From an uncultured virus (IMG/VR IMGVR_UViG_3300027782_000071) (lineage: Duplodnaviria > Heunggongvirae > Uroviricota > Caudoviricetes), in IMG/VR virus record IMGVR_UViG_3300027782_000071, positions 1-64,000 of that record: DNA of 64,000 nucleotides; one strand, 5' to 3'. How positions within the stretch are numbered: the stretch's first letter is position 1; every line of letters begins with the position of its first letter. Both the position numbers and the translations under genes were made by a program. A model generated the notes under the pieces. That model did not search any database. It was not told where the DNA came from and saw nothing but the letters and a program-made list of their open reading frames with translations. Positions 501-60,210 of this stretch are shown here, one piece after another.

Positions 501-501
501 G

Positions 502-36596: not shown

Positions 36597-36600
36597 ATAA

Positions 36601-38238: not shown

Positions 38239-38256
38239 AATAACTAAAAAAATTTA

Positions 38257-38472
38257 TTATTCGGTTACTTCTTCAGCAGTGGTTTCTACAACTTCAGGTT
38301 GTGGTTCTGGAACTGGTGTAGTAATAGTGATTTCGATCTGGTGATCCGCACCATGCTCTTCAATCAATGCTGCTACTTCCTCAACAGTATAACCAGTAGT
38401 ATTTGCTGGATCCGCAGTCAAGTGATATACATGCATCAAAGGCATTGTAAGAGTTTCAGTTTTAGTATCCAT
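38257..38472 (-). CDS. Small acidic hypothetical protein in the glycosylation cluster
   Basis: 71 aa, with SD GGAGG. Confidence 0.6.
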   Translation of the reverse strand: MDTKTETLTMPLMHVYHLTADPANTTGYTVEEVAALIEEHGADHQIEITITTPVPEPQPEVVETTAEEVTE

Positions 38473-43300: not shown

Positions 43301-43956
43301 ACTACAATATTAGATTTCACATGTCCTACGACTACAGTGGGATCTACATGAACTTGATATCCAAGATCTGCGACTCTTTCACACCAATAAAGATCTTCGC
43401 CCAATGGAAGATCATAAATCTCACCATCAACTTCCTGAGTAACTTTACCCAGTCCGTACCAAGGACGCTTCAAGGATTCAAAAACTCCTTGATTAACACA
43501 CATGAATCCAAGGCCAACACCATATGCGGGAAATGAATCTCCAGTTTGTTGAAGTGCTGTGATTTCTTCACGACTCATGGGACGAAAATCATCTTTGTTG
43601 CGATGAATCATGGCATCGGCACCTTGTGCTTCATAATAAACTCCAGAGATAATGTCTTTATCAGACTGAAGTAATTTTATAAACTGATCAGGATTCCAAA
43701 CAATATCACTATCAATACAGAAGATTTTATCGTAGGTGTATTGACCTTTTCCTGGTGCCCGATTAAAAACTTCCAGTTGGCGACTACCAGTAATCGTTGC
43801 TTCTCGTGCATTAGTGACAAGAGATGCATATTCATTTTGATAGTGCCAGGTGATATTATTTGCCTGAAGAACTTGAATCGTTCCCAGCAGTGATTTTACA
43901 TATTCAGACACCAGTGATTTTCCTGGAGTCATGATTACTACATTAAAATGAGTCAT
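43297..43956 (-). CDS. GT-A fold glycosyltransferase
   Basis: NARE, FCIDSDIVW (DxD), GLGFMC, GED..WC, GHVK. Confidence 0.78.
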   Translation of the reverse strand: MTHFNVVIMTPGKSLVSEYVKSLLGTIQVLQANNITWHYQNEYASLVTNAREATITGSRQLEVFNRAPGKGQYTYDKIFCIDSDIVWNPDQFIKLLQSDKDIISGVYYEAQGADAMIHRNKDDFRPMSREEITALQQTGDSFPAYGVGLGFMCVNQGVFESLKRPWYGLGKVTQEVDGEIYDLPLGEDLYWCERVADLGYQVHVDPTVVVGHVKSNIVV

Positions 43957-44669
43957 AGGATTACCATTTTTTGATGACCGACACGAACTTTTGGATTGCA
44001 CCAGATTTCAAATCCATGATCTCTGATATCTTCACACATAGCAACATCTTCAGAACACATATCTTCAAGAACAATTCCATCTTCACGAATGAGTTGAACT
44101 TTCTTTGGTGCAAACCAAGGATAAGGAATCTTTTCAAAGATACCTTTCTTCATCAGAACCCAACCAAATCCACAGTATTCAATCTTAAATGGTTCTGAGC
44201 GGCGTTGCATATCTTCAATCGTTTCAAAATAATAAGAACCCTTCTCAAGAAGAAGTTTCTTATCCATATTCACAACAACAGTTGATTGATTGGATACAGG
44301 AGTTCCATTCGACTGAACATACCATCCAGTAGAAATATCCTTATCCATTTGCAGAAGTTCTATCAGATCTTCTGTCTTAAAAATAATATCACTATCGATC
44401 CACATAATATAGTCATAAGGAACTTGACCCCTCCATGGAGTCAGTAGTGTCCCTGCAAAGTTATCTGCCTGCAGACAATCAGTTCTGGCGAAGTTTACCA
44501 TCGAACTGTATTTCTGCGAAATATAAAAGTTGATTCCCATTTGATTGAGATCAAACAAAAGGCGAATCATCTGAGTCATAAAGGTTCCTGAATATGAAAA
44601 TCCAGGAAGACAGAATGCTATTGTTTTTCCCTTGAAATCATTCTTCGGTTGATTTGAATAATTAAGCAT
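43953..44669 (-). CDS. GT-A fold glycosyltransferase (paralog of neighbour)
   Basis: VNFAR, MWIDSDIIF, GFGWVL, YPWF, SEDVA.C, VGHQK. Confidence 0.8.
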   Translation of the reverse strand: MLNYSNQPKNDFKGKTIAFCLPGFSYSGTFMTQMIRLLFDLNQMGINFYISQKYSSMVNFARTDCLQADNFAGTLLTPWRGQVPYDYIMWIDSDIIFKTEDLIELLQMDKDISTGWYVQSNGTPVSNQSTVVVNMDKKLLLEKGSYYFETIEDMQRRSEPFKIEYCGFGWVLMKKGIFEKIPYPWFAPKKVQLIREDGIVLEDMCSEDVAMCEDIRDHGFEIWCNPKVRVGHQKMVIL

Positions 44670-44714: not shown

Positions 44715-47700
44715 TTACCACCAGGTTATTTTAACATATCCATTTCCACCCGAAGCACCATCTCCAAATCTATTTTGTTCTTGAGAATATCCTCCACCAC
44801 CTCCACCACCTCCACGAGTTCCAGCGCCACCATCTCCTGCCACAGATTGTGTTGTGGATGATGCAGTAGCAAGAGTTCCCGAAGGTCCAGCAGCAACAAA
44901 TGAGGACCCATAAATCAATCTTGTAATATTAGTCGTACCAAATCCAGAAGATCTTACAATCCATGCGATTGCATCAGTTGAAGATCTGATTGCCCCACCA
45001 ACACTACCAGCAACATAAATGTTATTAGTATAAGCAAGAGCATTAATCGCGGATGTACCAAATCCTGATGTTCTTAACGACCAAGTAATCGTATCCGTTG
45101 AAGTACTTAAGATTCCATTGTTTCCAGCAGCAACATAAGCACCGCCTAGACCACCATAGGTAAAGGCATTAATCGCTGTTGTAGTAAATGTATTAAATCC
45201 AGAAGTTCTTATGGCCCAGTTGATATTATCAGTAGAGATCATAATATTGTATTCATTCAGAATATTTGTTGCTGATGCTACTGTGTAAAGTCCTTCTGAA
45301 TCTAAAGCAGTGATTGATGTAGTATTATTTGCAGTTGTTCTAACTGTCCAGGTTATCGTATCTGTGGATGCTTGCAATAATCCGCCAGTACCGTAAGAAA
45401 GTAAAAGAGTTTGAGTAGAAGTTGCAATAGTCCCACCTCCACCACCGATTACATAAAGGTTATTGCCATAAGCACCACAAAAAATTGATGTTGCACCAAA
45501 CCCAGATGTTCTTAATGCCCAAGTAATACCATCGGTCGATGTTCTTTGTTGTCCATTTGTCGTTGCAATATAAAGACCATCATTATAAGTTAATCCATAG
45601 GAGTTAATAGCATTTATAAATCCAGTAGTTCTTAATATCCAGTTAATAGTATCGGTTGAAGTTGCAAGGTATGTTGAGTTGCCTGAAGCAACTATAAATG
45701 TATTTGTTGGCAAAGATCCATAAACTGAAGAGAATAATTGAGAACCTGGGGATCCAGAAGTTCTTAAGGTCCAAGAAATCGTATCTGTAGAAGTTGCGAT
45801 ACCACCAGATCCACCAGTTGTATACAAATAAACTCCATTTCCATATGTAAATGTATAGGCATAAGATGGAAATATAGCGGTTCTCAATTGCCAATTAATA
45901 TTATCAGTAGATGCTGCTAAGAAATAATTTGTACTGAAGATTGAGTCATTTCCCCACCCTAAAGTAAAAGCACCAGCGGAAGAAAATCCACCAGTTGAAC
46001 CAAAATTTTCAGTTCCTAATGGTGCAGTTCTTGTGGTCCAAGATACAGAATCAGTTGATGCTCTTAAAAATGCTCCATTACCATAAGAACTTAAAATTGT
46101 TTGAGTTGATGTTACCAAAGTACCAGAAGCACCTCCCATTATATAAGTATCAGTTCCATAAGCAAGTGTATTAATATCAGAAATGCCAAATCCAGAAGTT
46201 CTTAAAATCCAAGTAATCGCATCAGTAGAAGTTCGAGTGGTTCCAGATGCACCAGCAGCAACATAAAGATTACTATTATAAGCAAGAGTACTAATTGTGG
46301 ATGCACCAAATCCTGATGTTCTTAAAGTCCAATTAATAGTATCTGTTGAAGTATTTAATATTCCATTGTTACCACCAGCAACATAAACGATCCCATAACC
46401 AAAAGCATTAATCGCCGTCGCACCAAATCCAGAAGTTCTTAAAACCCAGTTAATGTTATCTGTAGAAACAATTAAATTACCACTAATATTTCCTGAACTT
46501 ACACCAGAAGCAAAAGAATAAGAACCACCAGAACCTAATGTAACAATATCTACAATCTGGGAATAAGTTCTCAAAGACCAAGATATTGAATCTGTAGAAG
46601 CACTCAAAAGTGAATAGATAGGATCAACAGAAGAGGCAGTTGATAGAGTGTTTGTTGCGTTAGATGCTATTAAAAATAGATTATTCCCAAAAGTAGATGC
46701 AAAAATTACTGTAGTACCGAAACCAGAACCTCTTAGAGTCCAAGTAATACCATCTGTAGAAGATGAATTAGTTCCAGAAGCGCCACCAGCGCCATAGGTA
46801 TTATTACCATAAGAAAGTGTATTAATCTGAGAAGTACCAAATCCAGAAGTTCTTAAAGTCCAAGCAATTGTATCTGTTGAAGATAATAAGGTTCCAGAAG
46901 CACCCCCAACAACATAAAGATTTGATCCATTATAAGCAAGTGTAAGAATATTGGAAGTACCAAACCCAGAGGTTCTCATAGTCCAAGCAATCGCATCCGT
47001 TGATACCGATATTGCACCACCAGCAGTTGCAGCAATGTAAGCATTGCTTCCATAAACAACAGCACTAATTGAAGATGTACCAAACCCTGTTGTTCTCAAA
47101 GTCCATTGAATAGCATTTGTAGAAGATATTAATCCTGCTATTCCACCAGATCTACCGCCAACATATTTTTCTGTTGGTGTTACACTATATGCGAGAGTAG
47201 AAACCACTCCACCACCAAGAAATCCACCAGTTCTTAAAGTCCAGTTAATTGTATCTGTTGAAGTTCTTATCTGTGGCCAAGAATCTCCAACAACATAGAT
47301 ACCGCCACCGAAGACCATCGTTTGCATAATTGATGCTGGGGCCGCGTTTGCAGAAGTTCTTAAAACCCATTGAATAGCATTTGTAGAAACTTGAACAGAA
47401 GCATTTGTTCCATAACCACCAGCAAGATAGAATCCATTACCAAATGTAAGAGCACCAAGACCCGTTGAAGTTCCAACAACTGTTCTCTGAGTCCATACTA
47501 ATGGTTCCCCTCGACTATTAATTAAATATTCACCATTAAAGTAAGTAGAACTAACAATACCAGTTGATCCAAATCCTGATGTTCTTAAAGTCCAAGAGAT
47601 TGTATCTGTTGAAGATATTAATGTTCCAAGAGATTCTCCCATATAGTTTGTTGTTGCTGCAACATAATAACTACTACTTGAAGCAAGAGTAGTAATTGAT

Positions 47701-50700
47701 TGAGTATTAGTGACCGTTGTTCTTAAGATCCAAGTAATTGCATCAGTAGAAGCAGCAAAATATGCTCCAGTACCAAACGAAGATAAGATTGTTTGAGTTG
47801 ATGTGACAATCACACCCGCAGCTGCGGCAGCAACATAGTTGGTTCCGTCAGATGCCATTTCAACAAAATCTTGTACTGTTCCAGAAGTTCTAGTAATCCA
47901 AGTGATTGTATCTGTAGAAGTTGCGATTCTTCCTCCAACAGACGCAGTAACATAAAGATTACTATTATATACTAAACCATATATTCCACTTGTACCAAAT
48001 CCAGAAGTTCTTAATACCCATTCAATACCATTCGTTGAAGATACTATTGAACCAGAGTTACTAGTGGCAGTATAAGTACTTGATACATAAACTATATTTG
48101 TACAACCTCCACTCATAGGTGATGTTCTTGTTGTCCAAGCAATTCCATCTGTGGATGCTCTTAAAAGTGGTCCACTACCTCCAACATAATAGTCAGATCC
48201 ATCATAAATAGCAGATACAATGCTAGATGTTCCAAATCCAGAAGTTCTGATTGTCCAGGCAATAGAATTGGTAGAAGAACTTAATCTACCACTTTGCCCA
48301 GCAATAATATATTTTTCAGTTTCACTAGACCCATAGGAAATAGATCCAATCCAAGAAGTTCCAAATCCTGATGTTCTCAAAAACCAAGAAATCGTATCCG
48401 TAGAAGTAAGAAGACCTCCAGAAGTTACAGCACCACCAACAATAAAGTAGTTAGTTCCATCATAAGTTCCAGATTGTGTATCAAAAAATGGTGCTATAAC
48501 AGGAGATGTTCTTGCGGTCCAGGACACACCATCTGTTGATGCTCTCAAAAATCCAGTGGATGTTACTGCAGCAACATAAAGACCATTTCCATATATTAAT
48601 CCTTGTATTGTGGAAGTACCAAATCCTGAAGTTCTTAAAGTCCACATTACTGAGGGTGAATTTCCACCAACATAATAATTCGTACCTTTGAAACCAGATG
48701 CATTAATTGAACCAATAGTTCCAGAAGTTCTTAGAGTCCAAGTAATAGATGTAGAACTTCCTCCAATTAAATATTCACCATTAAAATATGAATAAAAATT
48801 GATTCCACTGGATCCAAATCCAGAACTTCTTAATGACCAAGATACTCCATCTGTTGATGTAGAGATAAGACCACCAGCAATTCCATTAGATCCTCCAATC
48901 AAAAACGAAGTTCCACCATAAATTGCATGAAAAATAGTAGGACTTGCCCCAAATCCAGAAGTTCTTAAAGTCCAAGTAACTAATGTTGATGCAGCACCAC
49001 CAATCAGAAACTCATTATTAGAATAAGTAACTGCACTAATCGTAGTTGTTCCAAATCCAGTGGTTCGTGCGATCCAGGTGATATTATCTGTAGAAGCAAT
49101 CAAAGCAGTCTGAGAAATATAGTTTGTTCCCGCCGCAACATAGTAACTATTACTTGTAGATAATAATGTGATTGTTTGAATATTGGAGTTAGTTCTTAAA
49201 GTCCAAGATACTCCATCAGTCGAAGCAGTTAGTAATCCACCATTTCCAAGAGAACTTAAAGTACTTTGTGTCGAAACTGCTAAAGTTCCTATATTACCAC
49301 TAGCAATATAAGTGTTGTTATTATAAAAAATACTTAACATATTACTATTTAAGTTTGAAGTTCTCAAAATCCAAGTAATACCATCAGTTGAAGTTGTATT
49401 GGTTGGTCCTGCTCCGCCAGCAGTAAAAATACCACCATTATAAGCGATGGTATAGATTATATTAGAACCAAATCCAGCAGTTCTTAAAGTCCAAGAAATG
49501 GTATCGGTGGATGTTGAAAGATATCCAGATGTTCCACCACCAACATAAAGATTAGATCCATTATAAGCAAATGTATAGATGTTTTGCGTCGTTCCAGATG
49601 TTCTCAATATCCAAACAGTCGCATTAGTGGATACGAGAATCTGTGCTGGAGAAGAACTTGGTGAAACAACATAAGGATTTGAAGCGCCAGTTGCATAGGT
49701 AAATGCAGCAGAATAACTCGTTACCGCTGTTGGTAAAGTTGCACTTTGAGTCCAAATAATAGAATCCGTAGAGTTAATAAAGATTGGTGGATTTGTGTTT
49801 GAACTCAAAATAGAAAATCTACCATCCACATAAAGCATACTTGAATATTGTGCCGCAGTAAATCCAGCAGTTCTTACCGTCCAGGTAATCGCATCAGTTG
49901 AAGCAGTGATCCACTGACCATTGCCACAAGCAACATATCTTCCAACACCATAAGCAACAGATCCAATCGCTGTTGTACCAAATCCAGAGGTTCTTAAAGT
50001 CCAAGTGATAGCATCTGTCGAAGACGCAAGAACTCCAGATTGAGCACAATAAAGATAAAGTGATGATCCATCATAAGTAATCGGATATCCACCAGTGGTA
50101 AATCCACCAGGACCAATATTGGCAGATACTTGACCAGAAGTTCTTAAGACCCAGGTAATAGTTGGTGTAAATCCTCCAGCAACATGGAAACTATTACCAT
50201 ATGTAAGCGCAGCAATCGCGGTTGTACCGAATCCAGAAGTTCTTAAATACCAACTATTGATTCCAGTCGAAAGTGCTCCTCCACCTCCACCACCAGATCC
50301 AATGTTTCCAGTATAAGATCCAGGAATACCATCAATGCCATTACCACCAGAAGCACTTCCTGCAGTATTATATGCATTTCTATAATAATATGTTAGAGAG
50401 TTTCCACCCGCTCTTGTATTAAATGCACCACCACCGCCACCAGTAACTTGATATGTATTTGATTGAATTGCATTGTTTACACTTGCCCATGATGTTAATC
50501 CAGCACCACCAGCAAGACCAGCAGTAGTATAAAGTGGGTTTAAAGTCACTGCGGCTGCGGCACCTGCAGTTCCTGCAGTTACATCGGATGAAGATGCTCC
50601 AGTTCCTCCAGAAGATGTTAAGGTATAAGTAGCGGTTCCTGTTGGAGATTTTCCAGTCCAAGTTAGGGTTGTATTTCCACCAGATGTGGGTGTAATTAAT

Positions 50701-53700
50701 AATCCCGATCCCCCAGCAAGAAAAACAGTTCCATAAGTAAGACCATAAAGTGAAGTTAATGCACTATTTGTTCTTAAAGTCCAAGTAATCGCATCAGTTG
50801 ATGTTACAGTAGTACCACCATACTGATTGACAAAAATTCCAGAATTATAAATTACTCGATAAGATCCAATAGCATTTGGAGTAGTTCTAATTGTCCATCT
50901 AATTGTATCTGTGGAACTTGCAAGTTTATTAAATCCCGCTGCAATATGAATTCCATTACCATATGCCAAATTGTTAAGTTGCTCTGCACCAATTCCAGAT
51001 GTTCTTGCAGTCCAACGAATAGCATCAGTTGATACAAAAATATTACCATTAAGATCCCCAACAATATATGGAGTTGATTCCGAAGATACATAATTTGATG
51101 AAAGTATTGAACTTGATCCACCACAAGTTCTAATTGTCCAAGTAATAGCATCGGGACTTGTGATTATTGCCCCATTAACACCAGTCATAACATAAGTTCC
51201 ACTTGGTGCAGTACCATACATTAAAGAATATTGGGTAGAGTTTGGAATTCCACTAACTCTTATAGTCCAAACAATCGCATCAGTGGATGTCCCATAATAA
51301 CTTGGAAATATTCCAACATCAGTTCCAAAAACATATAATGATCCCGAATAAATCAAAAGTGGGCCACCCCCTAAACTTCGTCCAATTCGAGTTGTTCCAA
51401 ATCCAGATGTTCTCAAAATCCAAGTATTTGTATCAACAGATGTTGCAATTGTTCCAGAATCTCCAACTGCAACATAAAGAGAATTTCCATATACAAGATG
51501 ATTAATTGTAGTTGCTCCAAAAGCACTGTTTGTTCTGGTCCAAATAATCCCATCAGTACTACTAATCATTGTTTTAATATTACCACCAGTTCCTCCAGTA
51601 CCTGGAGTTACTGTGATTGTGGGCGCATCTCCAAATTCTAGACGACGAATCAACCAAGAGTTATAAGCACCACCACCTCCTCCACCACCAGATCCAACAG
51701 TTCCAGTTGCTTTTCCTGCTGCTCCGCCTCCACCAGCACCGATTGCTTCAATATAAATCTGAGATGCTGTTGGAGGAATATAAAAAGTTTGTGCTCCTGA
51801 TGCAGTAAACTCCTGATATCCTCGATATATTGGAGAACCGATTGTACTAGATGTAGAGTTAATCGTTTGCCACTGTTTTGCAGTTATATTGGAAACCGCA
51901 AGAGTTCCAGATACACCACCAGCAACAATCGAAGAACCATAAACAGAAGTTGTGATTGAAGTAGATCCAAATCCACTAACTCTCGAAATCCAAGAGATTC
52001 CATCTGTAGATATTGCTAGTGTTCCCGCAGAACCAAAGGCAACAAATTGGGTTCCACCATAAAATAAACTATTAATCGCCGTCGTACCAAATCCAGTTGT
52101 TCTTAAAGTCCAAGAGATTGTATCTGTAGAAGTTCTTAAGAGACCAGCATTGCCAGCAATAGTATAAGTATTATTACCATAACCAAAAGCATTAATCGCC
52201 GTCGCACCAAATCCAGAAGTTCTTAAAACCCAGTTAATGTTATCTGTAGAAACATTTAAAAATCCAACTTCACCCATATAGTTGGTTCCATGAGCAAAAG
52301 CATAAGAACCACCAGAACCTAGTGCAGTGATTGCTAGTGTATTAACTGCAGTTGTTCTAGAAGTCCAAGAAACTCCATCAGTTGATGCCCGTAAAAGTGC
52401 TCCAGTTCCAAATGAAGATAAGATTGTTTGATTGGAAGTTTGTATGTCTCCAGTATTAGTACCAAAGACATAGATATCATTTCCAACTCCAATCGTCGAT
52501 ATTGCAGTTGTACCAAATCCAGAAGTTCTTAAGACCCAAGTAATCGTATCAGTCGATGTTACAGTACTTCCATTTTGACCAGCACCTACATAGACTCCAT
52601 TATTATAAGTAAGTTGTAATAGTGATGTAGATCCGAGTCCAGAAGTTCTTAAGACCCAATGAATCGCATTCGTTGAAACGGTTATATATGTTGCACCACA
52701 TCCAAGATATAGATTATTTGCATAGATTAATCCAACTAATGAGTTACCAGCACCAATCGCAGTAGTTCGAATCACCCAAGCAATCGAATCTGTGGAAGAT
52801 GATGTGAATGATGGTACAGATGCAACATATTTTTCAGTTGCATTTTGCCCATATGCCAAAGCATTAATGGTACTTGTACCAAATCCTGTTGTTCTTAAGG
52901 TCCAAGAAATAGTATCTGTCGAAGATATAATAGTACCAGATGATCCTCCAGTAACATAAAGACTTCCACTATATACGAATGTTGGTCCACTATTACCAAC
53001 ACTGTTTCCCAGAGTGGCAGTTGTTCCAACGGTTCTCGCTGTCCAGTTAATACTATCAGTCGAAACAAGAACATTACCTTGATTCAAATAGTTATTTGAT
53101 GTTGCAAGATAATATCCACCACCAGATGTTAAGGCAGTAATACCTTGAGTGTTGAGTCCTGCAGTTCTTAATGCCCAAGAAATAGTATCGGTTGAAGCCC
53201 TTAAAATTGCACCATTACCAATCGATCCCAAAATACTTGTCGTTGATGTTGAAATTGTAGGTACTGAAAATCCAGGTCCTGCCACCACAAAAGTATTATT
53301 ACCATAAGTGGAGGTATATATTGTAGATGTACCAAATCCAGAAGTTCGTGCAATCCAAGTAATCGCATCAGTTGATGTTGCAGTATTTCCACCAGCACCA
53401 CTCGCATTAAAAATTCCATTACCATAGGTCAATGCATACACATTGGCACCCATTGTACCTACAGTTCTTAAAACCCAACTAATACAATCCGTAGATGATG
53501 CAATATTAAACCCACCGATAACATATAAAGAATTTCCATAAGTGGAAGTAAAAATTGCATTAGCAGGAAATCCAGTGGTTCTTAAAACCCAGTTAATTCC
53601 ATCAGTGGAAGATGAAAATGATCTAGCAACATTAGTAGTTACGCCATATGTATTGATTGGGGTATTCCCATAAACAATTGAATATATGCTAACAAATCCC

Positions 53701-54701
53701 AATCCAGTTGATCTTGCAAACCAACTAATTGAATCGGTAGAAGTTGAGAAATAACCTCCACTACCACCCACAAGATAAACTCCATTTCCATAATTGATGA
53801 GAGGTCCAACATCAATAGCATTTGAATAATCTAAAGTAGTTCCAGAAGTTCTCTTAGTCCAAAAAATACCATCTGTCGAAACTGTTATGGATCCAGCAAG
53901 ACCAGTAGCAACATATAAATTATTACCATATCCAACATTATGAAGAGCAGTTGTACCATATCCCGTAGTTCTCGAAACCCAATTGACTGCATCGGTTGAA
54001 GTTAATAATACTGCTCCCGTTCCTCCTGCAAGATAAAGATTGTTTCCATATCCTAAAGAGTATGGAGTAAATACTGTACCAAAAGTTCTTTGAGTCCAGG
54101 TTGTATAATCAGCATACCCACCAGCAAGATAGATTCCATTATTATATGCGATACTATAAATCGCTGTTGTACCAAATCCTGAAGTTCTTAAAGTCCAAGA
54201 AACGGTTTCTGCTCTACCAGCAATCAAATATTCATTGTTAAAATATATTGATTTTGCAATATTAGTTGTACCAAATCCTGATGTTCTTAAAGACCAGGAA
54301 ACAGAATCAGTTGAAGAAGTTAAGGTTCCAGAAACTCCAGAAGCAACATAATTTGTTCCTGAAGATGCTAAGTTATTGATCGCGGAAGTACCGAATCCTG
54401 ATGTTCTTAAGGACCAGGAAACAGTATCGGTTGAAGTTGTTAATGTTCCAGAATCTCCACCATTAACATAAACAGTTCCATAAGTCGCAGCATTAATATT
54501 AGTAGTACCAAATCCAGAAGTTCTAAGTGTCCAGTAAAATGCTCCAGGATAAACACTTAAAAACTTACCACCATTTCCAGATACAGATGGATATATTGGA
54601 GTACCAGTTAATACAGCATCTGCATAAGTCTTATTTGCCGCATCTGTTGTATTAACTACTGTACTAATACCAGTAATATTATTGCTGCCTAATATTGCCA
54701 T
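44715..54701 (-). CDS. 3328-aa giant adhesin/fibre: Gly-rich scaffold carrying ten nested 7-repeat (beta-propeller-like, Asp-box/BNR) units
   Basis: 70 copies of STD.I.W..RT(SGFG); split Gly-rich domain (YQEFT...IGAGGGG ... GGNGYVKITWW). Confidence 0.8.
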   Translation of the reverse strand: MAILGSNNITGISTVVNTTDAANKTYADAVLTGTPIYPSVSGNGGKFLSVYPGAFYWTLRTSGFGTTNINAATYGTVYVNGGDSGTLTTSTDTVSWSLRTSGFGTSAINNLASSGTNYVASGVSGTLTSSTDSVSWSLRTSGFGTTNIAKSIYFNNEYLIAGRAETVSWTLRTSGFGTTAIYSIAYNNGIYLAGGYADYTTWTQRTFGTVFTPYSLGYGNNLYLAGGTGAVLLTSTDAVNWVSRTTGYGTTALHNVGYGNNLYVATGLAGSITVSTDGIFWTKRTSGTTLDYSNAIDVGPLINYGNGVYLVGGSGGYFSTSTDSISWFARSTGLGFVSIYSIVYGNTPINTYGVTTNVARSFSSSTDGINWVLRTTGFPANAIFTSTYGNSLYVIGGFNIASSTDCISWVLRTVGTMGANVYALTYGNGIFNASGAGGNTATSTDAITWIARTSGFGTSTIYTSTYGNNTFVVAGPGFSVPTISTSTTSILGSIGNGAILRASTDTISWALRTAGLNTQGITALTSGGGYYLATSNNYLNQGNVLVSTDSINWTARTVGTTATLGNSVGNSGPTFVYSGSLYVTGGSSGTIISSTDTISWTLRTTGFGTSTINALAYGQNATEKYVASVPSFTSSSTDSIAWVIRTTAIGAGNSLVGLIYANNLYLGCGATYITVSTNAIHWVLRTSGLGSTSLLQLTYNNGVYVGAGQNGSTVTSTDTITWVLRTSGFGTTAISTIGVGNDIYVFGTNTGDIQTSNQTILSSFGTGALLRASTDGVSWTSRTTAVNTLAITALGSGGSYAFAHGTNYMGEVGFLNVSTDNINWVLRTSGFGATAINAFGYGNNTYTIAGNAGLLRTSTDTISWTLRTTGFGTTAINSLFYGGTQFVAFGSAGTLAISTDGISWISRVSGFGSTSITTSVYGSSIVAGGVSGTLAVSNITAKQWQTINSTSSTIGSPIYRGYQEFTASGAQTFYIPPTASQIYIEAIGAGGGGAAGKATGTVGSGGGGGGGAYNSWLIRRLEFGDAPTITVTPGTGGTGGNIKTMISSTDGIIWTRTNSAFGATTINHLVYGNSLYVAVGDSGTIATSVDTNTWILRTSGFGTTRIGRSLGGGPLLIYSGSLYVFGTDVGIFPSYYGTSTDAIVWTIRVSGIPNSTQYSLMYGTAPSGTYVMTGVNGAIITSPDAITWTIRTCGGSSSILSSNYVSSESTPYIVGDLNGNIFVSTDAIRWTARTSGIGAEQLNNLAYGNGIHIAAGFNKLASSTDTIRWTIRTTPNAIGSYRVIYNSGIFVNQYGGTTVTSTDAITWTLRTNSALTSLYGLTYGTVFLAGGSGLLITPTSGGNTTLTWTGKSPTGTATYTLTSSGGTGASSSDVTAGTAGAAAAVTLNPLYTTAGLAGGAGLTSWASVNNAIQSNTYQVTGGGGGAFNTRAGGNSLTYYYRNAYNTAGSASGGNGIDGIPGSYTGNIGSGGGGGGALSTGINSWYLRTSGFGTTAIAALTYGNSFHVAGGFTPTITWVLRTSGQVSANIGPGGFTTGGYPITYDGSSLYLYCAQSGVLASSTDAITWTLRTSGFGTTAIGSVAYGVGRYVACGNGQWITASTDAITWTVRTAGFTAAQYSSMLYVDGRFSILSSNTNPPIFINSTDSIIWTQSATLPTAVTSYSAAFTYATGASNPYVVSPSSSPAQILVSTNATVWILRTSGTTQNIYTFAYNGSNLYVGGGTSGYLSTSTDTISWTLRTAGFGSNIIYTIAYNGGIFTAGGAGPTNTTSTDGITWILRTSNLNSNMLSIFYNNNTYIASGNIGTLAVSTQSTLSSLGNGGLLTASTDGVSWTLRTNSNIQTITLLSTSNSYYVAAGTNYISQTALIASTDNITWIARTTGFGTTTISAVTYSNNEFLIGGAASTLVTWTLRTSGFGASPTIFHAIYGGTSFLIGGSNGIAGGLISTSTDGVSWSLRSSGFGSSGINFYSYFNGEYLIGGSSTSITWTLRTSGTIGSINASGFKGTNYYVGGNSPSVMWTLRTSGFGTSTIQGLIYGNGLYVAAVTSTGFLRASTDGVSWTARTSPVIAPFFDTQSGTYDGTNYFIVGGAVTSGGLLTSTDTISWFLRTSGFGTSWIGSISYGSSETEKYIIAGQSGRLSSSTNSIAWTIRTSGFGTSSIVSAIYDGSDYYVGGSGPLLRASTDGIAWTTRTSPMSGGCTNIVYVSSTYTATSNSGSIVSSTNGIEWVLRTSGFGTSGIYGLVYNSNLYVTASVGGRIATSTDTITWITRTSGTVQDFVEMASDGTNYVAAAAAGVIVTSTQTILSSFGTGAYFAASTDAITWILRTTVTNTQSITTLASSSSYYVAATTNYMGESLGTLISSTDTISWTLRTSGFGSTGIVSSTYFNGEYLINSRGEPLVWTQRTVVGTSTGLGALTFGNGFYLAGGYGTNASVQVSTNAIQWVLRTSANAAPASIMQTMVFGGGIYVVGDSWPQIRTSTDTINWTLRTGGFLGGGVVSTLAYSVTPTEKYVGGRSGGIAGLISSTNAIQWTLRTTGFGTSSISAVVYGSNAYIAATAGGAISVSTDAIAWTMRTSGFGTSNILTLAYNGSNLYVVGGASGTLLSSTDTIAWTLRTSGFGTSQINTLSYGNNTYGAGGASGTNSSSTDGITWTLRGSGFGTTVIFASTFGNNLFLIASNATNTLSTASSVDPIYSLLSASTDSISWSLRTYSQIVDIVTLGSGGSYSFASGVSSGNISGNLIVSTDNINWVLRTSGFGATAINAFGYGIVYVAGGNNGILNTSTDTINWTLRTSGFGASTISTLAYNSNLYVAAGASGTTRTSTDAITWILRTSGFGISDINTLAYGTDTYIMGGASGTLVTSTQTILSSYGNGAFLRASTDSVSWTTRTAPLGTENFGSTGGFSSAGAFTLGWGNDSIFSTNYFLAASTDNINWQLRTAIFPSYAYTFTYGNGVYLYTTGGSGGIATSTDTISWTLRTSGSPGSQLFSSVYGSLPTNTFIVASGNSTYLATSTDTINWILRTTGFINAINSYGLTYNDGLYIATTNGQQRTSTDGITWALRTSGFGATSIFCGAYGNNLYVIGGGGGTIATSTQTLLLSYGTGGLLQASTDTITWTVRTTANNTTSITALDSEGLYTVASATNILNEYNIMISTDNINWAIRTSGFNTFTTTAINAFTYGGLGGAYVAAGNNGILSTSTDTITWSLRTSGFGTSAINALAYTNNIYVAGSVGGAIRSSTDAIAWIVRSSGFGTTNITRLIYGSSFVAAGPSGTLATASSTTQSVAGDGGAGTRGGGGGGGGYSQEQNRFGDGASGGNGYVKITWW

Positions 54702-54728: not shown

Positions 54729-57455
54729 TTACCACCAGGTGATCCTCACAAATCCATCGCCACCATTTCCACCATTCGCAAAAGTAGATCCAATGGCAGC
54801 ACCTCCACCTCCACCACCTCCACGAGTTCCATTACCACCTGCGCCAGCACTTGATATACCAGCACCTCCTCCACCTCCACCAAAACCATAAGGAAGTGAA
54901 GTGATTGCAATACCAACTGCACCATTCGATCCTGTATTACTTCCACCAGCAGAGAAAATAGTATTGCCATAGAAAGTAATCGAACCACCACCACCTCCTG
55001 CGGAAGATGGTGTTCCTGCTCCACTACCACCGCCCGTTGATTGGAATGAGTTTGCCTGTGCCGTAGCAGACACTCCAACACCATTGATCGCAGTAACACC
55101 ACCAGGGCCGCCAGCAGTTGTATAATAATAATTCGTGATATTTGTTTGAGCAATTCCAGCAACACCACCAGCACCACCACCATTTGCAACTAGTGTATAA
55201 GTTCCTCCAGGGCCAGTCCATGATATTGTTGTTCCTGCTCCTGCAGATCCAGAACTAGTTTCAGTTGTTGCTCCAGTTCCACCGACTCCAATATTTACAC
55301 TTACATTTGAAGTTACTATAGATTTGGGAATATACCAAGAAGTATAAGAACCTCCAGAACCGCCAGTACCAGATAACTGAGATTGTGCAGTAATTAAAGA
55401 TCCAGATACTCCAGCAACATAGTAATTATTATTCACAGATATTGATGATCTTAAAGATTGTGTCGTATTAGAAGTATTTACTCTCCAAACTATAGCATCT
55501 GTTGAGACATAAACTCCTCCATTATCACCTGCCAGAAGATAACTCAAAGATGCAGAAGAATATGAAAGAGTATAGATTGAATCTCCAGAAAACCCTACAG
55601 TTCTTAGAGTCCAAGTGATTGCATCAGTTGAAGAGGTTAAGAATTTATCAGATCCTGCAGATACATAAACAGACCCATAAGTAAGTGTATTAATCGCGGA
55701 AGTACCGAATCCCGATGTTCTTAAGATCCAGGTAATAGTATCAGTTGAAGTATTTAAGATTCCATTATTACCGCCAGCAACATAAACAGTTCCATAACTA
55801 AAGGCATTAATCGCAGTTGAACCAAATCCAGAAGTTCTTGCAATCCAGTTAATATTATCTGTAGAAACATTTAGGAATCCAATATCACCTCTATAGTTGG
55901 TTCCATGAGCAAAGGTATAAGAACCACCAGAACTTAGTAAAGTTACAGTTAATGTATTGAGTGCTGTAGTTCTTAAGACCCAAGTTATGCCATTAGTTGA
56001 TGCTTGGAGACGGGCCCCAGTTCCAAATGAAGATAAGATTGTTTGATTGGAAGTTTGTATGACTCCAGAACTTCCCCCAAAAACATATATGTCTTGACCA
56101 AAGATACTCGTATAAATGTCATTACCTGAAGGAGAAGTTCTCAATACCCATGCAATACCATCCGTAGAAGTTAGATTAGTTCCAGATGCACCAGCAGCAA
56201 CATATAAGTTATTATTATGGGAAATGGTATAAAGATTACTTACAGTTCCAGAAGTCCTAAATGTCCATTGTATGGCATTAGTAGAAGTTTCAATAAATCC
56301 CGAGTTGCCAACTATAGCATAAACAGAACCTACCGCAATATTGTTAAGCGTAGTGGTAGTTGAAGAAGTTCTGAATGTCCAGTATATGGTATTCGTCGAA
56401 GTTTGTATATATCCACTAATACCCGCAAGAACATAGTAGTTACTACTCAGAGTACTATAGATTCCAGAATACACATAATTTGGATTCATTGGTACGGGAC
56501 TAGTTCTTGTAAACCAACCAATACCATCAGTTGAAGTTGTTATTATTGCAGAAGCACTTAGATAAGTTGGAGTTGGTAAAGATCCATATAATACAGTATG
56601 TATTCCATAAATACCAGCAACCATAGGAGCATTGGTTCTTGTAGTCCATACGATTCCATTTGTAGAAGTTCCTGTTCCTCCGCTATTCGAATTATTAATG
56701 AACACATATAAATTATTCCCCAAAATAAGACCAGAACCAGCACCATTATTACCATTTCCAACTTGATTTAAAGGAGAAGAAATAGTTCTAAGTACCCAAG
56801 AAATAGTATCCGTGGAAGTTGCTAAATTTGAAGAATTTCCACCAGCAAAATAAGTATTATTAGCATAAAGAGATGCTAAAAAACCATTACCAGTTCCAGA
56901 AGTTCTTAAGACCCAGGTAATCGTTTCTACTCTTCCACCAATCAAATGTTCATTATTAAAGTAAGTTGCACTATTAATATTGGTTGTTCCAAATCCTGAG
57001 GATCTTACAATCCAAGTGATTGTATCAGTTGAAGATCTCAATGCTCCTCCTGCTCCAGAAATAACATAAGTTGTTCCACCTGATGTAATATTTGAAATCG
57101 TCGTCGATCCAAAACCAGAAGTTCTTAATGACCAAGTAAGACCATTTTTTGCAAAAGTAGATCCAGTTGTTCCAGTACTTCCACCACCTCCAGCACCAAC
57201 TGCCTCAACATATAAAAGATTTGCCTGAGAAGGCACTGTAAATGTTTGTGGAGATCCTGTTGTAGAAAACTCTTGATAGTTTGAAACATAATCCCATGAA
57301 ACACTTGTACCATCAGTCGTAGTTAAAAACTCTCCATCATTTCCAGTTTGTGATGGCAATGTTGAAAGATTATCGACATAAGACTTATAAACACCATCAG
57401 TTCCCTGAGTTGCTGTTGTAATGCCAGTAATAAAATTAGATCCTAGTATTGCCAT
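54729..57455 (-). CDS. 908-aa paralogous Gly-rich adhesin with two nested 7-repeat units
   Basis: Same N-terminus (MAILGSN.ITGI) and C-terminus (GGNGGDGFVRITWW); 14 W..RT repeats. Confidence 0.8.
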   Translation of the reverse strand: MAILGSNFITGITTATQGTDGVYKSYVDNLSTLPSQTGNDGEFLTTTDGTSVSWDYVSNYQEFSTTGSPQTFTVPSQANLLYVEAVGAGGGGSTGTTGSTFAKNGLTWSLRTSGFGSTTISNITSGGTTYVISGAGGALRSSTDTITWIVRSSGFGTTNINSATYFNNEHLIGGRVETITWVLRTSGTGNGFLASLYANNTYFAGGNSSNLATSTDTISWVLRTISSPLNQVGNGNNGAGSGLILGNNLYVFINNSNSGGTGTSTNGIVWTTRTNAPMVAGIYGIHTVLYGSLPTPTYLSASAIITTSTDGIGWFTRTSPVPMNPNYVYSGIYSTLSSNYYVLAGISGYIQTSTNTIYWTFRTSSTTTTLNNIAVGSVYAIVGNSGFIETSTNAIQWTFRTSGTVSNLYTISHNNNLYVAAGASGTNLTSTDGIAWVLRTSPSGNDIYTSIFGQDIYVFGGSSGVIQTSNQTILSSFGTGARLQASTNGITWVLRTTALNTLTVTLLSSGGSYTFAHGTNYRGDIGFLNVSTDNINWIARTSGFGSTAINAFSYGTVYVAGGNNGILNTSTDTITWILRTSGFGTSAINTLTYGSVYVSAGSDKFLTSSTDAITWTLRTVGFSGDSIYTLSYSSASLSYLLAGDNGGVYVSTDAIVWRVNTSNTTQSLRSSISVNNNYYVAGVSGSLITAQSQLSGTGGSGGSYTSWYIPKSIVTSNVSVNIGVGGTGATTETSSGSAGAGTTISWTGPGGTYTLVANGGGAGGVAGIAQTNITNYYYTTAGGPGGVTAINGVGVSATAQANSFQSTGGGSGAGTPSSAGGGGGSITFYGNTIFSAGGSNTGSNGAVGIAITSLPYGFGGGGGGAGISSAGAGGNGTRGGGGGGGAAIGSTFANGGNGGDGFVRITWW

Positions 57456-57465
57456 TTATTTTCTC

Positions 57466-60210
57466 CTATTGCCAACTAATACGAACATAACCATCACCAC
57501 CATTTCCACCAAATCCTGGAACAGTGCTTGCACCATCATATGCTCCACCACCACCACCGCCTCCACAAACTCCATTTCCACCACGGCCCGCCTTTGTTGC
57601 AGTCGTCGCAATCATATCTGAACCACTGCTCACAAGTAGAAAAATATTATTTCCAAAACACCCACCACTGACATTACCACCATTAACCCATCCACCAGTT
57701 CTTAAGTGCCAAGTAAAAGAATCGATAGATGCATGAACATAATTAGAATTGCCAGCAGCAATATAAGTCCCACCACCATAAATTGAAGCATATGGATCAC
57801 TACTTAAAGTTCTCACAATCCAAGTAATGGTATCAGTAGAAGTAGAAACACTATTACCACTTCTATTAGATGCTATAAATCTTCCATTGCCATATGCCAA
57901 TGATGAAACATCGCCAATACCGCCTATACCCAAAGTTCTTGCAATCCAAACAATACCATTTGTAGATACATTAATCACTCTAGAAGCTGCTCCAAGAATA
58001 TATTGATCATTATCATAAATTATAGAATAAATTTGTCCCGTTGTTCCAGCAGTTCTTAGTTGCCAAACAATGGCATCCGTAGAAGCAATTAGAGCACCAG
58101 AGGCGCCAACACCATAAAAAAATCCACCTTGATATGACAAAGAAGGTCCAGAAAAAGTACTTCCAATTTGATTTGCAGTTCCAGATGATCTAAATGTCCA
58201 GTTGATTGAATCAGTAGAACTTCTTAATCCAGAGTTTCCATCAATCACATAAACACCATTACCATAAACTACCCCCAAAATTACACTAGCACCATAAGAA
58301 GAAGTTCTCAAAACCCAAACAATACTATCGGTAGAGAATCCCAAGCGGCCACCATCACCACCATAAATGTAATTTGATCCATCATAATAAGTCGTATAAA
58401 GAACAATACCACCGGTATTGGCAGTTCTTAATCTCCAAAAACTTCCGCCAAGAGCATTCGAACTTCCACCATTTCCACCATAACCATAAGAAAGTCCAGT
58501 AATGTTTGTTGCACTTGTACCATTCATATTTCTCTGATCTAATGTGGAAGATACAGTATTTCCATAATAGTTAATTGTACCTCCCAAAGATCCATAAGAT
58601 CCATAAAAATTTGAACTATTTGTGTTAGAGTTAGAAACTGCTCCACCACCACCACCAGTAGTTTGAAAAGATGAAGTTGCAGTTGTTGCATTTGATGGTA
58701 CTTGAAGTGCCTCAAAAATACCACCATTACCACCAGCAGTTCCAGCAGATGCTTGAAGATAATTTGATGATGCCGTTATTGTACCTCCTGCCCCACCAGG
58801 AAGTGATTGAGTTGAAGAGTTATATACATTAGTTCCAGCACTTCCACCATTTGCAGTTATAGAAAAGTTTCCTCCAGGTCCTGCCCAAGATACTACACTC
58901 GAATCTCCAGATGCTCCATATACACCACCTTTTCCAACTTTAACGGTTAATGTAGTGCCACTAATATATGCTTTTGAAATATTCCAAGATGCCGCTGCTC
59001 CTCCACCTCCACCACTTCCAGCAAATCCAGTAGGAGGTAAAGCAGCACCAATATATCCAGAATCACCACCGACAACAAAAGTATTATTGCCATATACCAC
59101 TCCTTTCCAACCACTACCAAAAGCACCTGGTGAAGTTCTGAATGACCAAGTAACAGTATCAGTAGAAAAGAATATAAATCCAGCACCACCAACAGCATAA
59201 TAAGTATTATTCGCAAAAGTTGTTGCATATAAAGATTGTAAATAACTTACACTAGTTCTTGCAGTCCAAGTAACTGCATCTGTAGAAACAATTATATCGG
59301 CAGATGTACCAGTAGCAAAATAAAGACCATTTCCATAAGATACACTAATATAAAAATTATTATTAACTCCAGTTCTAATTACCCAAGTAATACTATCTGT
59401 AGAAGTTTGAAATCTTCCAGAACCACCACTAGTAACATATTGATCTCCAGCATAAAGAATTCTATATATTGCATTTCCGGTAGGATATCCAGAAGTTCTT
59501 AAGGACCAGGTAATGCCATTTGTAGAAGCAAAAATACGAGCATCATTATCTAAACCAAGAACATAAATGCCATTATTAAATTCTAAAGCATTAAGTCTAG
59601 CAGTACTGGCACCTGTTGTTTGCATTGTCCAAGTGATACTATCAGTAGAGGTAATTAATTTTCCAGCATTACCACATACAACATAAAGATTTCCACTATA
59701 CACGATAGAACCAATTGCAGTTGCACCAAATCCACTTGTTCTCGTAATCCAAGTAATTGCATCAGTAGAAGCAAGAACTGCTCCACCATCAGTTCCTGCA
59801 TAAAATACATTGTTCGCATATATCATTCCTGGACCCTGATAATACCCTGAAATACTATTAGAATGACTAGAAGTTCTTAAAAACCATTGCCCAGCACCAG
59901 TGTTCACATAAGAAGATGCATCTCTAGTTCCTGATGCTCCACTCCCTCCAGCACCCGTTGCTTCTATGAACAGTTGTTTTGCTTGAGACGGTACATTAAA
60001 GGTATACGTTCCAGCAGCAATATATTCTTGATATGATCCTACTGGTTGCCAAGATGAAGTATTGCCATTAGTGGTTAAAAAGTTATTATCTTGATTTGTT
60101 ATTGGTGGACCAGATGCAGAAATATCCACATATTGCTTATTTACGGCATCAGACGCATTAGATACCGAATCAATACCAGTAACTTGAGTAGAACCTACAC
60201 CGACTGGCAT
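57466..60210 (-). CDS. 914-aa paralogous Gly-rich adhesin with two separate 7-repeat units
   Basis: DAVNKQYVD, YQEY...TGAGGSG, 2x7 W..RT repeats, GGNGGDGYVRISWQ. Confidence 0.8.
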   Translation of the reverse strand: MPVGVGSTQVTGIDSVSNASDAVNKQYVDISASGPPITNQDNNFLTTNGNTSSWQPVGSYQEYIAAGTYTFNVPSQAKQLFIEATGAGGSGASGTRDASSYVNTGAGQWFLRTSSHSNSISGYYQGPGMIYANNVFYAGTDGGAVLASTDAITWITRTSGFGATAIGSIVYSGNLYVVCGNAGKLITSTDSITWTMQTTGASTARLNALEFNNGIYVLGLDNDARIFASTNGITWSLRTSGYPTGNAIYRILYAGDQYVTSGGSGRFQTSTDSITWVIRTGVNNNFYISVSYGNGLYFATGTSADIIVSTDAVTWTARTSVSYLQSLYATTFANNTYYAVGGAGFIFFSTDTVTWSFRTSPGAFGSGWKGVVYGNNTFVVGGDSGYIGAALPPTGFAGSGGGGGAAASWNISKAYISGTTLTVKVGKGGVYGASGDSSVVSWAGPGGNFSITANGGSAGTNVYNSSTQSLPGGAGGTITASSNYLQASAGTAGGNGGIFEALQVPSNATTATSSFQTTGGGGGAVSNSNTNSSNFYGSYGSLGGTINYYGNTVSSTLDQRNMNGTSATNITGLSYGYGGNGGSSNALGGSFWRLRTANTGGIVLYTTYYDGSNYIYGGDGGRLGFSTDSIVWVLRTSSYGASVILGVVYGNGVYVIDGNSGLRSSTDSINWTFRSSGTANQIGSTFSGPSLSYQGGFFYGVGASGALIASTDAIVWQLRTAGTTGQIYSIIYDNDQYILGAASRVINVSTNGIVWIARTLGIGGIGDVSSLAYGNGRFIASNRSGNSVSTSTDTITWIVRTLSSDPYASIYGGGTYIAAGNSNYVHASIDSFTWHLRTGGWVNGGNVSGGCFGNNIFLLVSSGSDMIATTATKAGRGGNGVCGGGGGGGAYDGASTVPGFGGNGGDGYVRISWQ

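Follow-up and report, generated by a model that had tools for sequence, protein, structure and literature searches.

How is a chain of seventy beta-propeller blades folded when the blades are unevenly spaced: as a string of successive rings, or as rings placed inside other rings? The question is raised by the open reading frame (ORF) at 44715..54701 (minus strand) of a 64,000-nucleotide stretch of DNA from an uncultured virus of the Caudoviricetes (IMG/VR record IMGVR_UViG_3300027782_000071, positions 1 to 64,000); the window below means this whole stretch. It is a single ORF of 9987 nucleotides with an ATG start that encodes a protein of 3328 amino acids, and all the features of that protein given below lie on the same strand. 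A first-pass annotation of this DNA had proposed that ten units of seven repeats each are inserted inside one another. Our analysis favours the same nested architecture, with a probability of about 0.8: ten seven-bladed rings would be grafted into loops of parent rings, on a scaffold of the fibre-tip type. Support comes from the grammar of related proteins, from whole-unit differences between them and, as far as structure models go, from the predicted ring of one insert (N_in) and the predicted pairing of the two halves of a split parent (N_out).

Blade count and bracket grammar

Blades were located by a rule anchored on tryptophan, which accepts a W with S[TVP][DN] at positions -6 to -4 or with xx[RQ][TSGVA] after it; a hidden Markov model (HMM) of the 40-residue blade and split-HMM parsers missed blades, and the W-anchor rule was used in their place. 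The rule finds 70 blades of about 40 amino acids each, 61 of them with the Asp-box-like motif S-T-D-x-I-x-W and 68 with W-x-x-R/Q. The 69 spacings from W to W fall into four kinds. There are 53 ordinary ones (38-51 amino acids), two large gaps of glycine-rich, non-repeat sequence (150 and 177 amino acids), seven short ones (32-34 amino acids, after blades 3, 4, 29, 38, 40, 41 and 50) and seven long ones (54-60 amino acids, at blades 11, 17, 36, 48, 57, 61 and 66). The W that follows each short blade is without the S-T-D box (RAETVSW, YADYTTW, FTPTITW, ASTLVTW, SSTSITW, NSPSVMW and RGEPLVW), and these seven sites are the openers. All the long blades contain an additional stretch of the form ...TQTILSS[F/Y]G.GA.L.ASTD, diverged in one case (...SSVDPIYSLLSASTD); these are the closers, whose linkers are short and conserved in length.

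When openers and closers are read as brackets, the parse balances as 1 2 3(4(5-11)12-17)18-21 | 22-28 | 29(30-36)37 38(39 40(41(42-48)49 50(51-57)58-61)62-66)67-70, and all ten units contain exactly seven blades. The units are called N_out, N_mid and N_in in the N-terminal part, Mid in the centre, and C_out and C_a to C_e in the C-terminal part. On all of these counts the first-pass annotation holds: it had reported 70 repeats, seven openers and seven closers (the 14 positions agree within about 15 nucleotides) and a balanced pairing with seven repeats per unit, which is found in ten units out of ten. The five split units, with their pieces summed, measure 286-308 amino acids, against 293-307 for the five contiguous ones. 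Moreover, the position of each seventh blade can be predicted from the openers alone, and the seven predicted positions coincide with the seven long blades while the other 53 blades include no long one; the chance of such an agreement is 1/C(60,7), or 2.6e-9. Once their pieces are set in bracket order, three split parents (N_out, C_out and C_c) are also collinear blade by blade at shift 0, with mean diagonal scores of 71-82 versus 48-57 off the diagonal.

The junctions can be described strand by strand. Counted from its W, a repeat consists of strand d of the preceding blade followed by strands a, b and c; in fact, DSSP assigns four strands per repeat in the AlphaFold2 (AF2) model presented below, and the Asp-box-like motif sits there before the short W strand. 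A short repeat stops after strand b (...Y-L-I-G-G), and the opener that follows it is a d strand without its preceding c strand, which serves to close a new ring. In a closer, an ordinary c strand with a degenerate box (S-T-Q) is followed by a T-I-L-S-S linker (a short helix in the model, residues 488-492) and finally by a second c-like strand (G-A-L-L-R-A-S) with the true box after it; this second c-like strand provides the c strand that the parent blade lacks.

The blade after each closer (12, 18, 37, 49, 58, 62 and 67) has a conserved form of its own, ...T-x-x-I-T-x-L-x-S-x-x-S-Y-x-x-A-x-G-T-N-Y-M...L-x-V-S-T-D-N-I-N-W, and often precedes a blade of the type '...AINAFGYG...GNNGIL'. The sequences suggest a common origin of the parents in a single template ring that already contained a socket.

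Conservation of the grammar in related proteins

The relatives found comprise 52 proteins of 1830-5824 amino acids, 177 proteins of 499-1589 amino acids and 81 loci from viral and metagenome contigs. The grammar was read in 30 close proteins with at least one opener, a set that includes the two nested proteins of the window and 13 similar members of the P0002 class. Among these, 76 of 78 predicted seventh blades are long, whereas the same is true of only 14 of the 701 other blades, and 38 of 47 segments close at exactly seven blades. Architectures among the relatives extend from one ring (about 600 amino acids) to eleven rings (L008, 3589 amino acids), in many bracket topologies. A distant cellular relative, P0022, has four plain tandem seven-blade units with linkers between them; because the distant cellular relatives are of this tandem seven-blade kind, seven blades appear to be the base unit of the family, and nesting a speciality of its phage branch.

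The 3328-residue gene is one of three paralogous genes, and the trio recurs in eight loci (L006, L008, L011, L012, L020, L026, L059 and L077). The orthologue in L006 has 2719 amino acids and is parsed as 3(7)4 | 7 | 1(7)2(2(3(7)4)5)4. The two halves of its N-terminal outer ring are 75% and 61% identical to those of the window, and the enclosed insert has 14 blades in the window and seven in L006. C_d (contiguous blades 42-48, amino acids 2014-2308, 47778..48662, opener NSPSVMW, nesting level 4 by the bracket parse) has its counterpart in the L006 N-terminal insert, within the N-terminal outer ring (66-88% amino acid and 75-91% nucleotide identity), and for this reason the ring sits in a different parent in L006. 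Nucleotide identity to L006 is 93-100% for C_a (contiguous blades 30-36, amino acids 1511-1817, 49251..50171, opener FTPTITW) and C_e (contiguous blades 51-57, amino acids 2397-2692, 46626..47513, opener RGEPLVW, nesting level 4; 97-100% for this ring), against 73-88% in the surrounding parents. The tracts of high identity overrun the brackets by one or two blades, and the borders are therefore approximate. In the P0004 class the middle ring is absent and the glycine-rich domain is contiguous. The grammar, its conservation in relatives and the whole-ring differences between relatives are thus established at the level of sequence.

Megablast found no match among phage records, and tblastn returned two weak records only, the closest cultured records matching at 28-32%. 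The cultured lake phage DSL-LC01 of Actinomycetia (L082, OQ999401.1) has a single free-standing ring of about 290 amino acids, annotated 'photosynthesis system II assembly factor'. Its gene sits among collagen-like fibre genes, and the adjoining 8.5-kb gene is annotated 'ALK tyrosine kinase receptor', a label presumably due to a glycine-rich domain.

Predicted structures of an insert and of a split parent

Structure prediction covers two of the ten units. Ring membership was deduced from the residue ranges that VIA-align superposed and from the list of two-chain contacts, and it refers to predicted structures only.

The first prediction concerns the innermost N-terminal ring. AF2 was run on amino acids 155-775 (blade 4, the insert of blades 5-11 and blades 12-17), with a 27-row alignment of the window and of locus pieces with the same local bracket pattern. 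N_in (contiguous blades 5-11, amino acids 196-493, 53223..54116) begins with the opener YADYTTW and ends with the linker ...STSTTSILGS, and its blades are modelled with a predicted local distance difference test score (pLDDT) of 70-92. Residues 44-336 of the model (amino acids 198-490, from opener to closer) superpose on complete seven-blade propellers; the match to 2z2o_D has Z 30.9, a root-mean-square deviation (rmsd) of 2.5 A and 279 of 295 residues aligned, and that to the designed seven-blade ring 7big_A has Z 29.1. Foldseek matches to single rings include Ycf48, namely 2xbg with a template modelling (TM) score of 0.69 and 5oj3_A with 0.65 at 16% identity. Since the superposition spans amino acids 198-490, it is the bracketed unit 5-11, and not another window of seven blades, that closes as a ring in the model. 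A closed ring of seven four-stranded blades was obtained for N_in alone, in this AF2 model.

The second prediction concerns N_out, whose first part (blades 1-3, amino acids 51-162, 54216..54551), with spacings that show blade 3 cut after its second strand (...YFNNEYLIAG), is followed after the insert by its second part (extra strand FGTGALLRAS and blades 18-21, amino acids 764-937, 51891..52412), which is also placed by the L006 alignment. Amino acids 45-162 (blades 1-3) and 764-940 (blades 18-21), which are 601 residues apart in the protein, were given to ESMFold2 as two separate chains with 5-row alignments that we had built ourselves. The interface score ipSAE (interaction prediction score from aligned errors) was 0.83, 0.83 and 0.84, against 0.00 for the best of three controls; the mark applied to this score is reached by 116 of 157 solved complexes and by 2 of 215 mismatched pairs. 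Contacts agree between the runs to at least 94%, and the partner pLDDT is 84 or more. The contacts of lowest error join amino acids 157-161 (EYLIA, strand b of the cut blade 3) to amino acids 770-774 (LRAST, the extra strand), and a second interface joins amino acids 55-74 to 917-939, as closure of the ring requires. In this prediction the cut blade 3 is completed by the extra strand of the closer, and the N_out ring closes. For one insert and one split parent, ring closure is hence what the models predict.

N_mid lies between these two units. Its first part is blade 4 (amino acids 163-195, 54117..54215), which spacing shows to start at the opener RAETVSW and to be itself cut short; its second part, of low confidence in the AF2 model, is made of the extra strand IGNGAILRAS, blades 12-17 and the linker NQTILSS (amino acids 494-763, 52413..53222).

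Several further alignments were set aside before folding. The one-ring relatives of about 600 amino acids scattered over both rings and were dropped, leaving no clean alignment in which the insert is absent. In the full-length MAFFT alignment of relatives the query was stretched over 3241 columns and one closer was set against glycine-rich sequence; in an alignment of the N-terminal part the rows aligned as chimeras, with amino acids 290-580 covered by one sequence; and in a MAFFT trial for amino acids 1975-2885 every row fell on the second insert.

A split glycine-rich domain as scaffold

The two large gaps between blades belong to a domain that the first-pass annotation had missed. The Gly_rich_2 profile (PF21722) matches with its positions 1-72 at amino acids 966-1041 (34.4 bits, above the cut-off of 24.3) and with its positions 173-225 at amino acids 3282-3327 (16.5 bits, under the cut-off). 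Because two parts of the same profile match at both ends, one glycine-rich domain appears to be split across 2240 residues. Its first piece (amino acids 938-1047, 51561..51890) also matches phrog_863 (1.5e-13, the best of the PHROG matches), phrog_356, phrog_416 and phrog_754, annotated as tail fibre assembly or minor tail protein. The second piece (amino acids 1341-1477, 50271..50681) is conserved in relatives and matches no Pfam or PHROG family when taken alone, and the third (amino acids 3281-3328, 44718..44861; ...GGGGGGGGY...GNGYVKITWW) carries the sub-threshold Gly_rich_2 match and a tail that nearly all relatives conserve. Of the three outer rings, two (Mid and C_out) are inserted in this split fibre-tip domain. 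At the other end of the protein, the N-terminal region (amino acids 1-50, 54552..54701), with the pattern MA.L.SN..TG.S.V.N.TDA.NK.Y.D and only weak PHROG matches, is common to the two upstream paralogues and to relatives.

The same head is present in the paralogues. The protein of 908 amino acids (54729..57455, minus strand) has the N-terminus and the glycine-rich domain of the 3328-residue protein and a single nest 2(7)5, its glycine-rich pieces flanking a propeller block of 600 amino acids; it scores 27.7 bits on Gly_rich_2. In an AF2 model of the whole protein only the glycine-rich pieces (amino acids 60-95, 695-760 and 880-908) reach pLDDT 60-84, and these pieces, residues 57 to 908, align to the Pam3 fibre 7ypx_A (Z 14.9, rmsd 2.7, 165 residues, 28% identity), to the Bxb1 tail tip 9d93_Qa (Z 13.1) and to the glycine-rich domains of ALK (Z 7.8-9.5). 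A split glycine-rich fold is thereby predicted for this paralogue; a phmmer search with its glycine-rich tail gave no match among PDB sequences. The protein of 914 amino acids (57466..60210, minus strand) carries, from its sequence, two separate un-nested seven-blade rings in two different loops of the glycine-rich domain. On the basis of the Gly_rich_2 and PHROG matches and of the Pam3-type alignment, the three paralogues have a common fibre-tip head. Rings are plugged into this head at three or more different loops, and the 3328-residue protein has in addition a three-ring tree ahead of it.

Three relatives of the 908-residue protein (P0055-P0057, 1083-1092 amino acids) parse as nn(7)nnn|nn and have a non-blade stretch of more than 100 amino acids inside the parent ring, after the third post-closer blade; this stretch may represent another type of insert, placed in the same scaffold.

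Proposed architecture

In the nested architecture, a short conserved N-terminus and a glycine-rich head of the Pam3 gp24 / S16 gp38 / ALK type would form the scaffold, and ten Asp-box-like propellers of the DUF6242_C / PSII_BNR kind would be attached to it through repeated domain insertion. The chain would leave a parent blade after its second strand (b), build a complete ring beginning with that ring's closing outer strand (W-x-L-R-T), re-enter through the short linker T-Q-T-I-L-S-S and then provide the parent's missing third strand (G-x-G-A-L-L-x-A-S), with the next Asp-box after it. Recursion of this step, twice in some parents, would give three trees.

The first tree, 3(1(7)6)4, would stand ahead of the glycine-rich head and consist of N_out, N_mid and N_in. 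The second would be a single ring in one loop of the head, Mid (contiguous blades 22-28, amino acids 1048-1340, 50682..51560), which the bracket parse sets within the glycine-rich domain and which is the ring missing from the P0004 class. The third, in another loop of the head, would have six rings, four deep. According to spacing and bracket parse, its outer ring C_out comes in three parts: blade 29, cut short (amino acids 1478-1510, 50172..50270); an extra strand with blades 37-38, blade 38 being cut short (amino acids 1818-1903, 48993..49250); and an extra strand with blades 67-70 (amino acids 3103-3280, 44862..45395). Within it, after C_a, comes C_b, made of blades 39-40 (amino acids 1904-1981, 48759..48992, opener ASTLVTW) and of an extra strand with blades 62-66 (amino acids 2873-3102, 45396..46085). 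C_b encloses C_c, made of blade 41 (amino acids 1982-2013, 48663..48758, opener SSTSITW), an extra strand with blades 49-50 (amino acids 2309-2396, 47514..47777) and an extra strand with blades 58-61 (amino acids 2693-2872, 46086..46625), and C_c in turn would hold both C_d and C_e.

Strength of the nested reading and its alternatives

Among the structure models that the first-pass annotation had proposed as a check, closure of N_in as a seven-blade ring (AF2) and the joining of the N_out halves (ESMFold2) speak for nesting, and the N_mid parent has low confidence. The comparison of homologues at the same loops, proposed along with them, came out as nesting predicts, L006 differing by whole seven-blade units at (approximate) bracket borders and P0004 being without the middle ring.

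A number of points weigh against nesting. AF2 gives the parent ring (blade 4 with 12-17) a pLDDT of only 30-70, and the whole model has a mean of 65.5 and a predicted TM score (pTM) of 0.56; the AF2 model of the complete 908-residue paralogue, from 18 rows of the same architecture, has a mean pLDDT of 35.7, with 23-34 in its propeller block. The ESMFold2 result could reflect memory of solved propellers, and any pair of three and four blades might assemble; the controls of the two-chain test were unrelated proteins and not other blades, and its alignments were small. In the 30 close proteins, nine of 47 segments failed to close at seven blades and two of 78 predicted closers are not long; the nine segments probably contain blades missed by the regular expression. 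The whole 3328-residue protein has no Pfam or PHROG family match (in Pfam at E up to 1, PF24067 at 0.75 is the sole hit), and a profile built from eight units finds among PDB sequences only the pyrroloquinoline quinone (PQQ)-type propeller 7evf_AA (E 4.7e-07), and no Ycf48. Finally, the match to Pam3 and ALK involves about 140 residues at pLDDT 60-84, in the 908-residue paralogue only.

The alternative that survives best, improbable as it is, keeps the nested architecture and gives it another job: some or all rings would be sialidase- or GH74-like glycosidases that degrade capsules, or the protein would decorate the capsid or tail and adhere to particles instead of a specific receptor. Asp-box propellers are in fact typical of glycoside hydrolases, according to the available part of one paper (PMC2716378), the nearest ESM Atlas cluster bears a sialidase name (see below), and the N-terminal region has a weak match to a head-decoration PHROG (E 0.016). 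Against an enzyme stand the lack of any hydrolase family match in Pfam or PHROGs and best fold matches that are non-enzymatic or unrelated seven-blade rings; moreover, ten copies per chain and the shuffling of rings between phages suit binding modules better, and the scaffold is a fibre-tip domain.

We consider it more improbable still that rings close between subunits, with cut blades completed in trans (by domain swapping in a trimeric fibre), or that some parents have another ring size. Pam3 gp24, the closest structural match of the scaffold, forms a trimeric fibre in the sections available (PMC9942802), the two-chain test is blind to the difference between completion in cis and in trans, and the parent ring is without a confident cis model. 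Yet closure in cis predicts the exact count of seven blades within one chain that every unit shows, here and among relatives; the linkers are short and conserved in length, and no sign of oligomers appeared in this analysis.

The poorest fit is a linear string, in which consecutive blades form sequential rings and the uneven lengths of the repeats only reflect loops of variable size or linkers between rings: it can point to distant cellular relatives of the P0022 type, to known tandem Asp-box seven-blade propellers (GH74, for example, is among the Foldseek matches) and to the low AF2 confidence outside one insert, but its ring borders would fall at 7|8 and 14|15 where the marks are at 3, 4, 11 and 17, AF2 closes blades 5-11 and not 4-10 or 8-14, the cut blade 3 would have no third strand unless the closer gives one (and ESMFold2 pairs exactly those strands), and relatives differ by whole bracketed units, with long closers at 76 of the 78 predicted places.

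Family placement and possible function

The blades resemble the Asp-box families without entering them. Their box, S-[TVP]-[DN]-x-x-x-W in 61 of the 70 blades, is one residue short of the canonical S-x-D-x-G-x-T-W, and I or V replaces the G. The 3328-residue protein passes none of the curated propeller profiles (BNR, PSII_BNR or DUF6242_C), and with no WD40 match in Pfam it does not belong to the WD40 family. The 914-residue paralogue scores 25.2 bits on DUF6242, whose cut-off is 29, and the distant relatives P0022 and P0032 pass this cut-off, P0032 passing that of PSII_BNR as well. Neighbours in the ESM Atlas carry DUF6242_C or PSII_BNR, which serves as a lead only, and the nearest cluster (score 0.96) is automatically named 'Exo-alpha-sialidase family protein'. 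To our knowledge, the members of Asp-box propeller families have single or tandem rings, never nested ones.

Under the nested architecture, the chances seem about even that the rings are binding modules, probably for surface glycans, and that the whole protein is a branched, multivalent binder of the host surface; it is in this sense that we infer an adhesin. The many rings would add avidity and breadth, and related phages may swap or re-site whole rings to change binding. A bolder and rather doubtful extension is that the opener (...N-N-E-Y-L-I-G-G / R-x-E-T-x-x-W) and the closer (...S-T-Q-T-I-L-S-S-x-G-x-G-A-L-L-x-A-S-T-D) act as universal 'plug and socket' junctions, by which recombination could move any ring, together with its nested contents, into the blade loops of any ring or into the loops of the head, re-wiring tree-shaped adhesins and generating host range combinatorially, with whole domains as the units.

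Comparison with known systems

The first-pass annotation had known of no description of such a recursive architecture in a phage protein. Phrase searches of the literature, with most subscription journals outside their reach, found no paper on propellers nested beyond Trm734/DDB1. It had missed two precedents in print, the propellers nested two deep in Trm734/DDB1 and the recursive self-insertion of small domains in Si3.

In Trm734, according to the available part of the paper, the BPB ring is inserted in blade 7 of BPA, before strand d7, so that the chain has to finish BPB before it can complete BPA, and its first element is d7, the strand that closes BPC (PMC6847430). Trm734/DDB1 is thus like our protein in that seven-bladed rings are nested in one chain, there two levels deep. 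The blades described there are WD40 blades with insertion between strands c and d, whereas here they are Asp-box-like and insertion occurs between b and c, to judge from the position of the Asp-box and from the models. That source presents three rings of fixed topology in a eukaryotic intracellular scaffold; here there would be ten rings, four deep, branched and variable among relatives, in a phage fibre protein, and the likeness is one of chain topology and not of membership.

Si3 of the cyanobacterial RNA polymerase beta' subunit (RpoC2) is described, in the sections at hand, as eight domains in a recursive architecture of six levels, with bifurcating nodes where one host carries several inserts, and with inserts that are consistently of smaller size than the hosts (PMC13114784). 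Both systems show a single type of domain recursively inserted into itself, with branching. However, Si3 as presented there is conserved and built of small hybrid motifs, its eight domains lying in residues 463-1007, whereas each module here is a ring of about 300 amino acids and the nested-propeller fibre family varies from phage to phage. Here, moreover, the insert equals the host in size, and inserted trees reach 28 blades (about 1200 amino acids) in a ring of 300 amino acids.

To judge from the 908-residue paralogue, the scaffold may share its fold, of the TNF-like plus polyglycine-lattice kind, with Pam3 gp24, S16 gp38 and ALK (PDB 7ypx, 9d93, 7nx3 and 7ls0; Pfam Gly_rich_2). In the available text on Pam3, the TNF-like and glycine-rich domains of gp24 face outward and might recognise host receptors, and the protein resembles the S16 adhesin gp38 (PMC9942802). 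As described there, gp24 has about 275 amino acids and no propellers, while here the domain lies in three pieces up to 2240 residues apart. With Ycf48/PSII_BNR, DUF6242_C and GH74, as far as the consulted part of the paper goes (PMC2716378), the blades share a length of about 40 amino acids, a seven-blade ring and perhaps the S-x-D...W hairpin that links strands three and four; unlike in those families, the motif is one residue shorter and has no glycine, and no Pfam propeller model is passed. Integrin alpha-I offers a last comparison: the accessible sections report a ligand-binding domain inserted in a loop of a seven-bladed propeller, which widens the range of ligands (PMC12422189). That insert is of another fold and at one level, with no recursion, whereas here a propeller would be placed in a propeller.

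If the nested reading is true, no known example of a domain inserted into its own copies would be deeper or larger: ten rings of 300 residues, four deep, in a fifth host domain. A parent ring must then await up to about 1200 residues of nested rings for its missing strand, and limits of co-translational folding and of insertion become testable; inserts as large as their hosts or larger run against the rule of smaller inserts, as stated in the part of the Si3 paper available (PMC13114784). The protein also points to a large, uncharacterised family of fibre tips, in which the shuffling of whole rings may set host range, and it would offer protein design a natural template for branched multivalent binders. 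Should the plug-and-socket idea also be true, it would be a natural self-similar protein with inserts at least as large as their hosts.

Genomic setting

The 3328-residue gene is the third and last of the three co-directional paralogous genes, after those for 914 and 908 amino acids, and the gaps between the genes are 10 and 27 nucleotides. An unchanged copy of the 9987-nucleotide ORF is found in three other records, and a copy with a 2-nucleotide difference in a fourth; DNA repeats inside the ORF are 60-80% alike, with the exception of one 84-nucleotide pair at 99%. An assembly artefact as the source of the 70-blade pattern was considered and ruled out, because identical ORFs recur in other records and the internal repeats are too diverged. 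The near-identical pair joins 46393-46476 (blade 59) to 52177-52260 (blade 19), both of the '...NINW...AINAFGYG' type, and may reflect recent gene conversion.

The window is DNA of a myovirus with T4-like tail and baseplate genes. The 3328-residue protein shows similarity to tail families and its gene lies in a tail gene module, with baseplate hub, tail, tail fibre and virion structural families as neighbours. PHROG matches in the window include a baseplate hub / tail lysozyme (phrog_1922, 5.7e-137), a tail protein (phrog_350) and a virion structural protein (phrog_5838), and the C-terminus of one short ORF is of the tail-fibre kind. Two giant collagen-like tail-fibre proteins are encoded at 1718-6430 (minus strand, 1570 amino acids) and 6803-13222 (minus strand, 2139 amino acids). 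Within the latter lies an antisense ORF of 658 amino acids (10765-12741, plus strand), probably a by-product of the repetitive codon pattern.

Directly downstream of the 3328-residue gene, the region 33671-44669 (minus strand) has PHROG matches to glucosyl-, galactosyl- and glycosyltransferases and to methyltransferases, and includes two overlapping paralogues, 43297-44001 and 43953-44669, that both match phrog_1574. Given the very high Ser and Thr content of the fibre proteins, their glycosylation by these putative transferases is conceivable. The sole tRNA gene of the window is a tRNA-Met (CAT) at 501-575 (minus strand).

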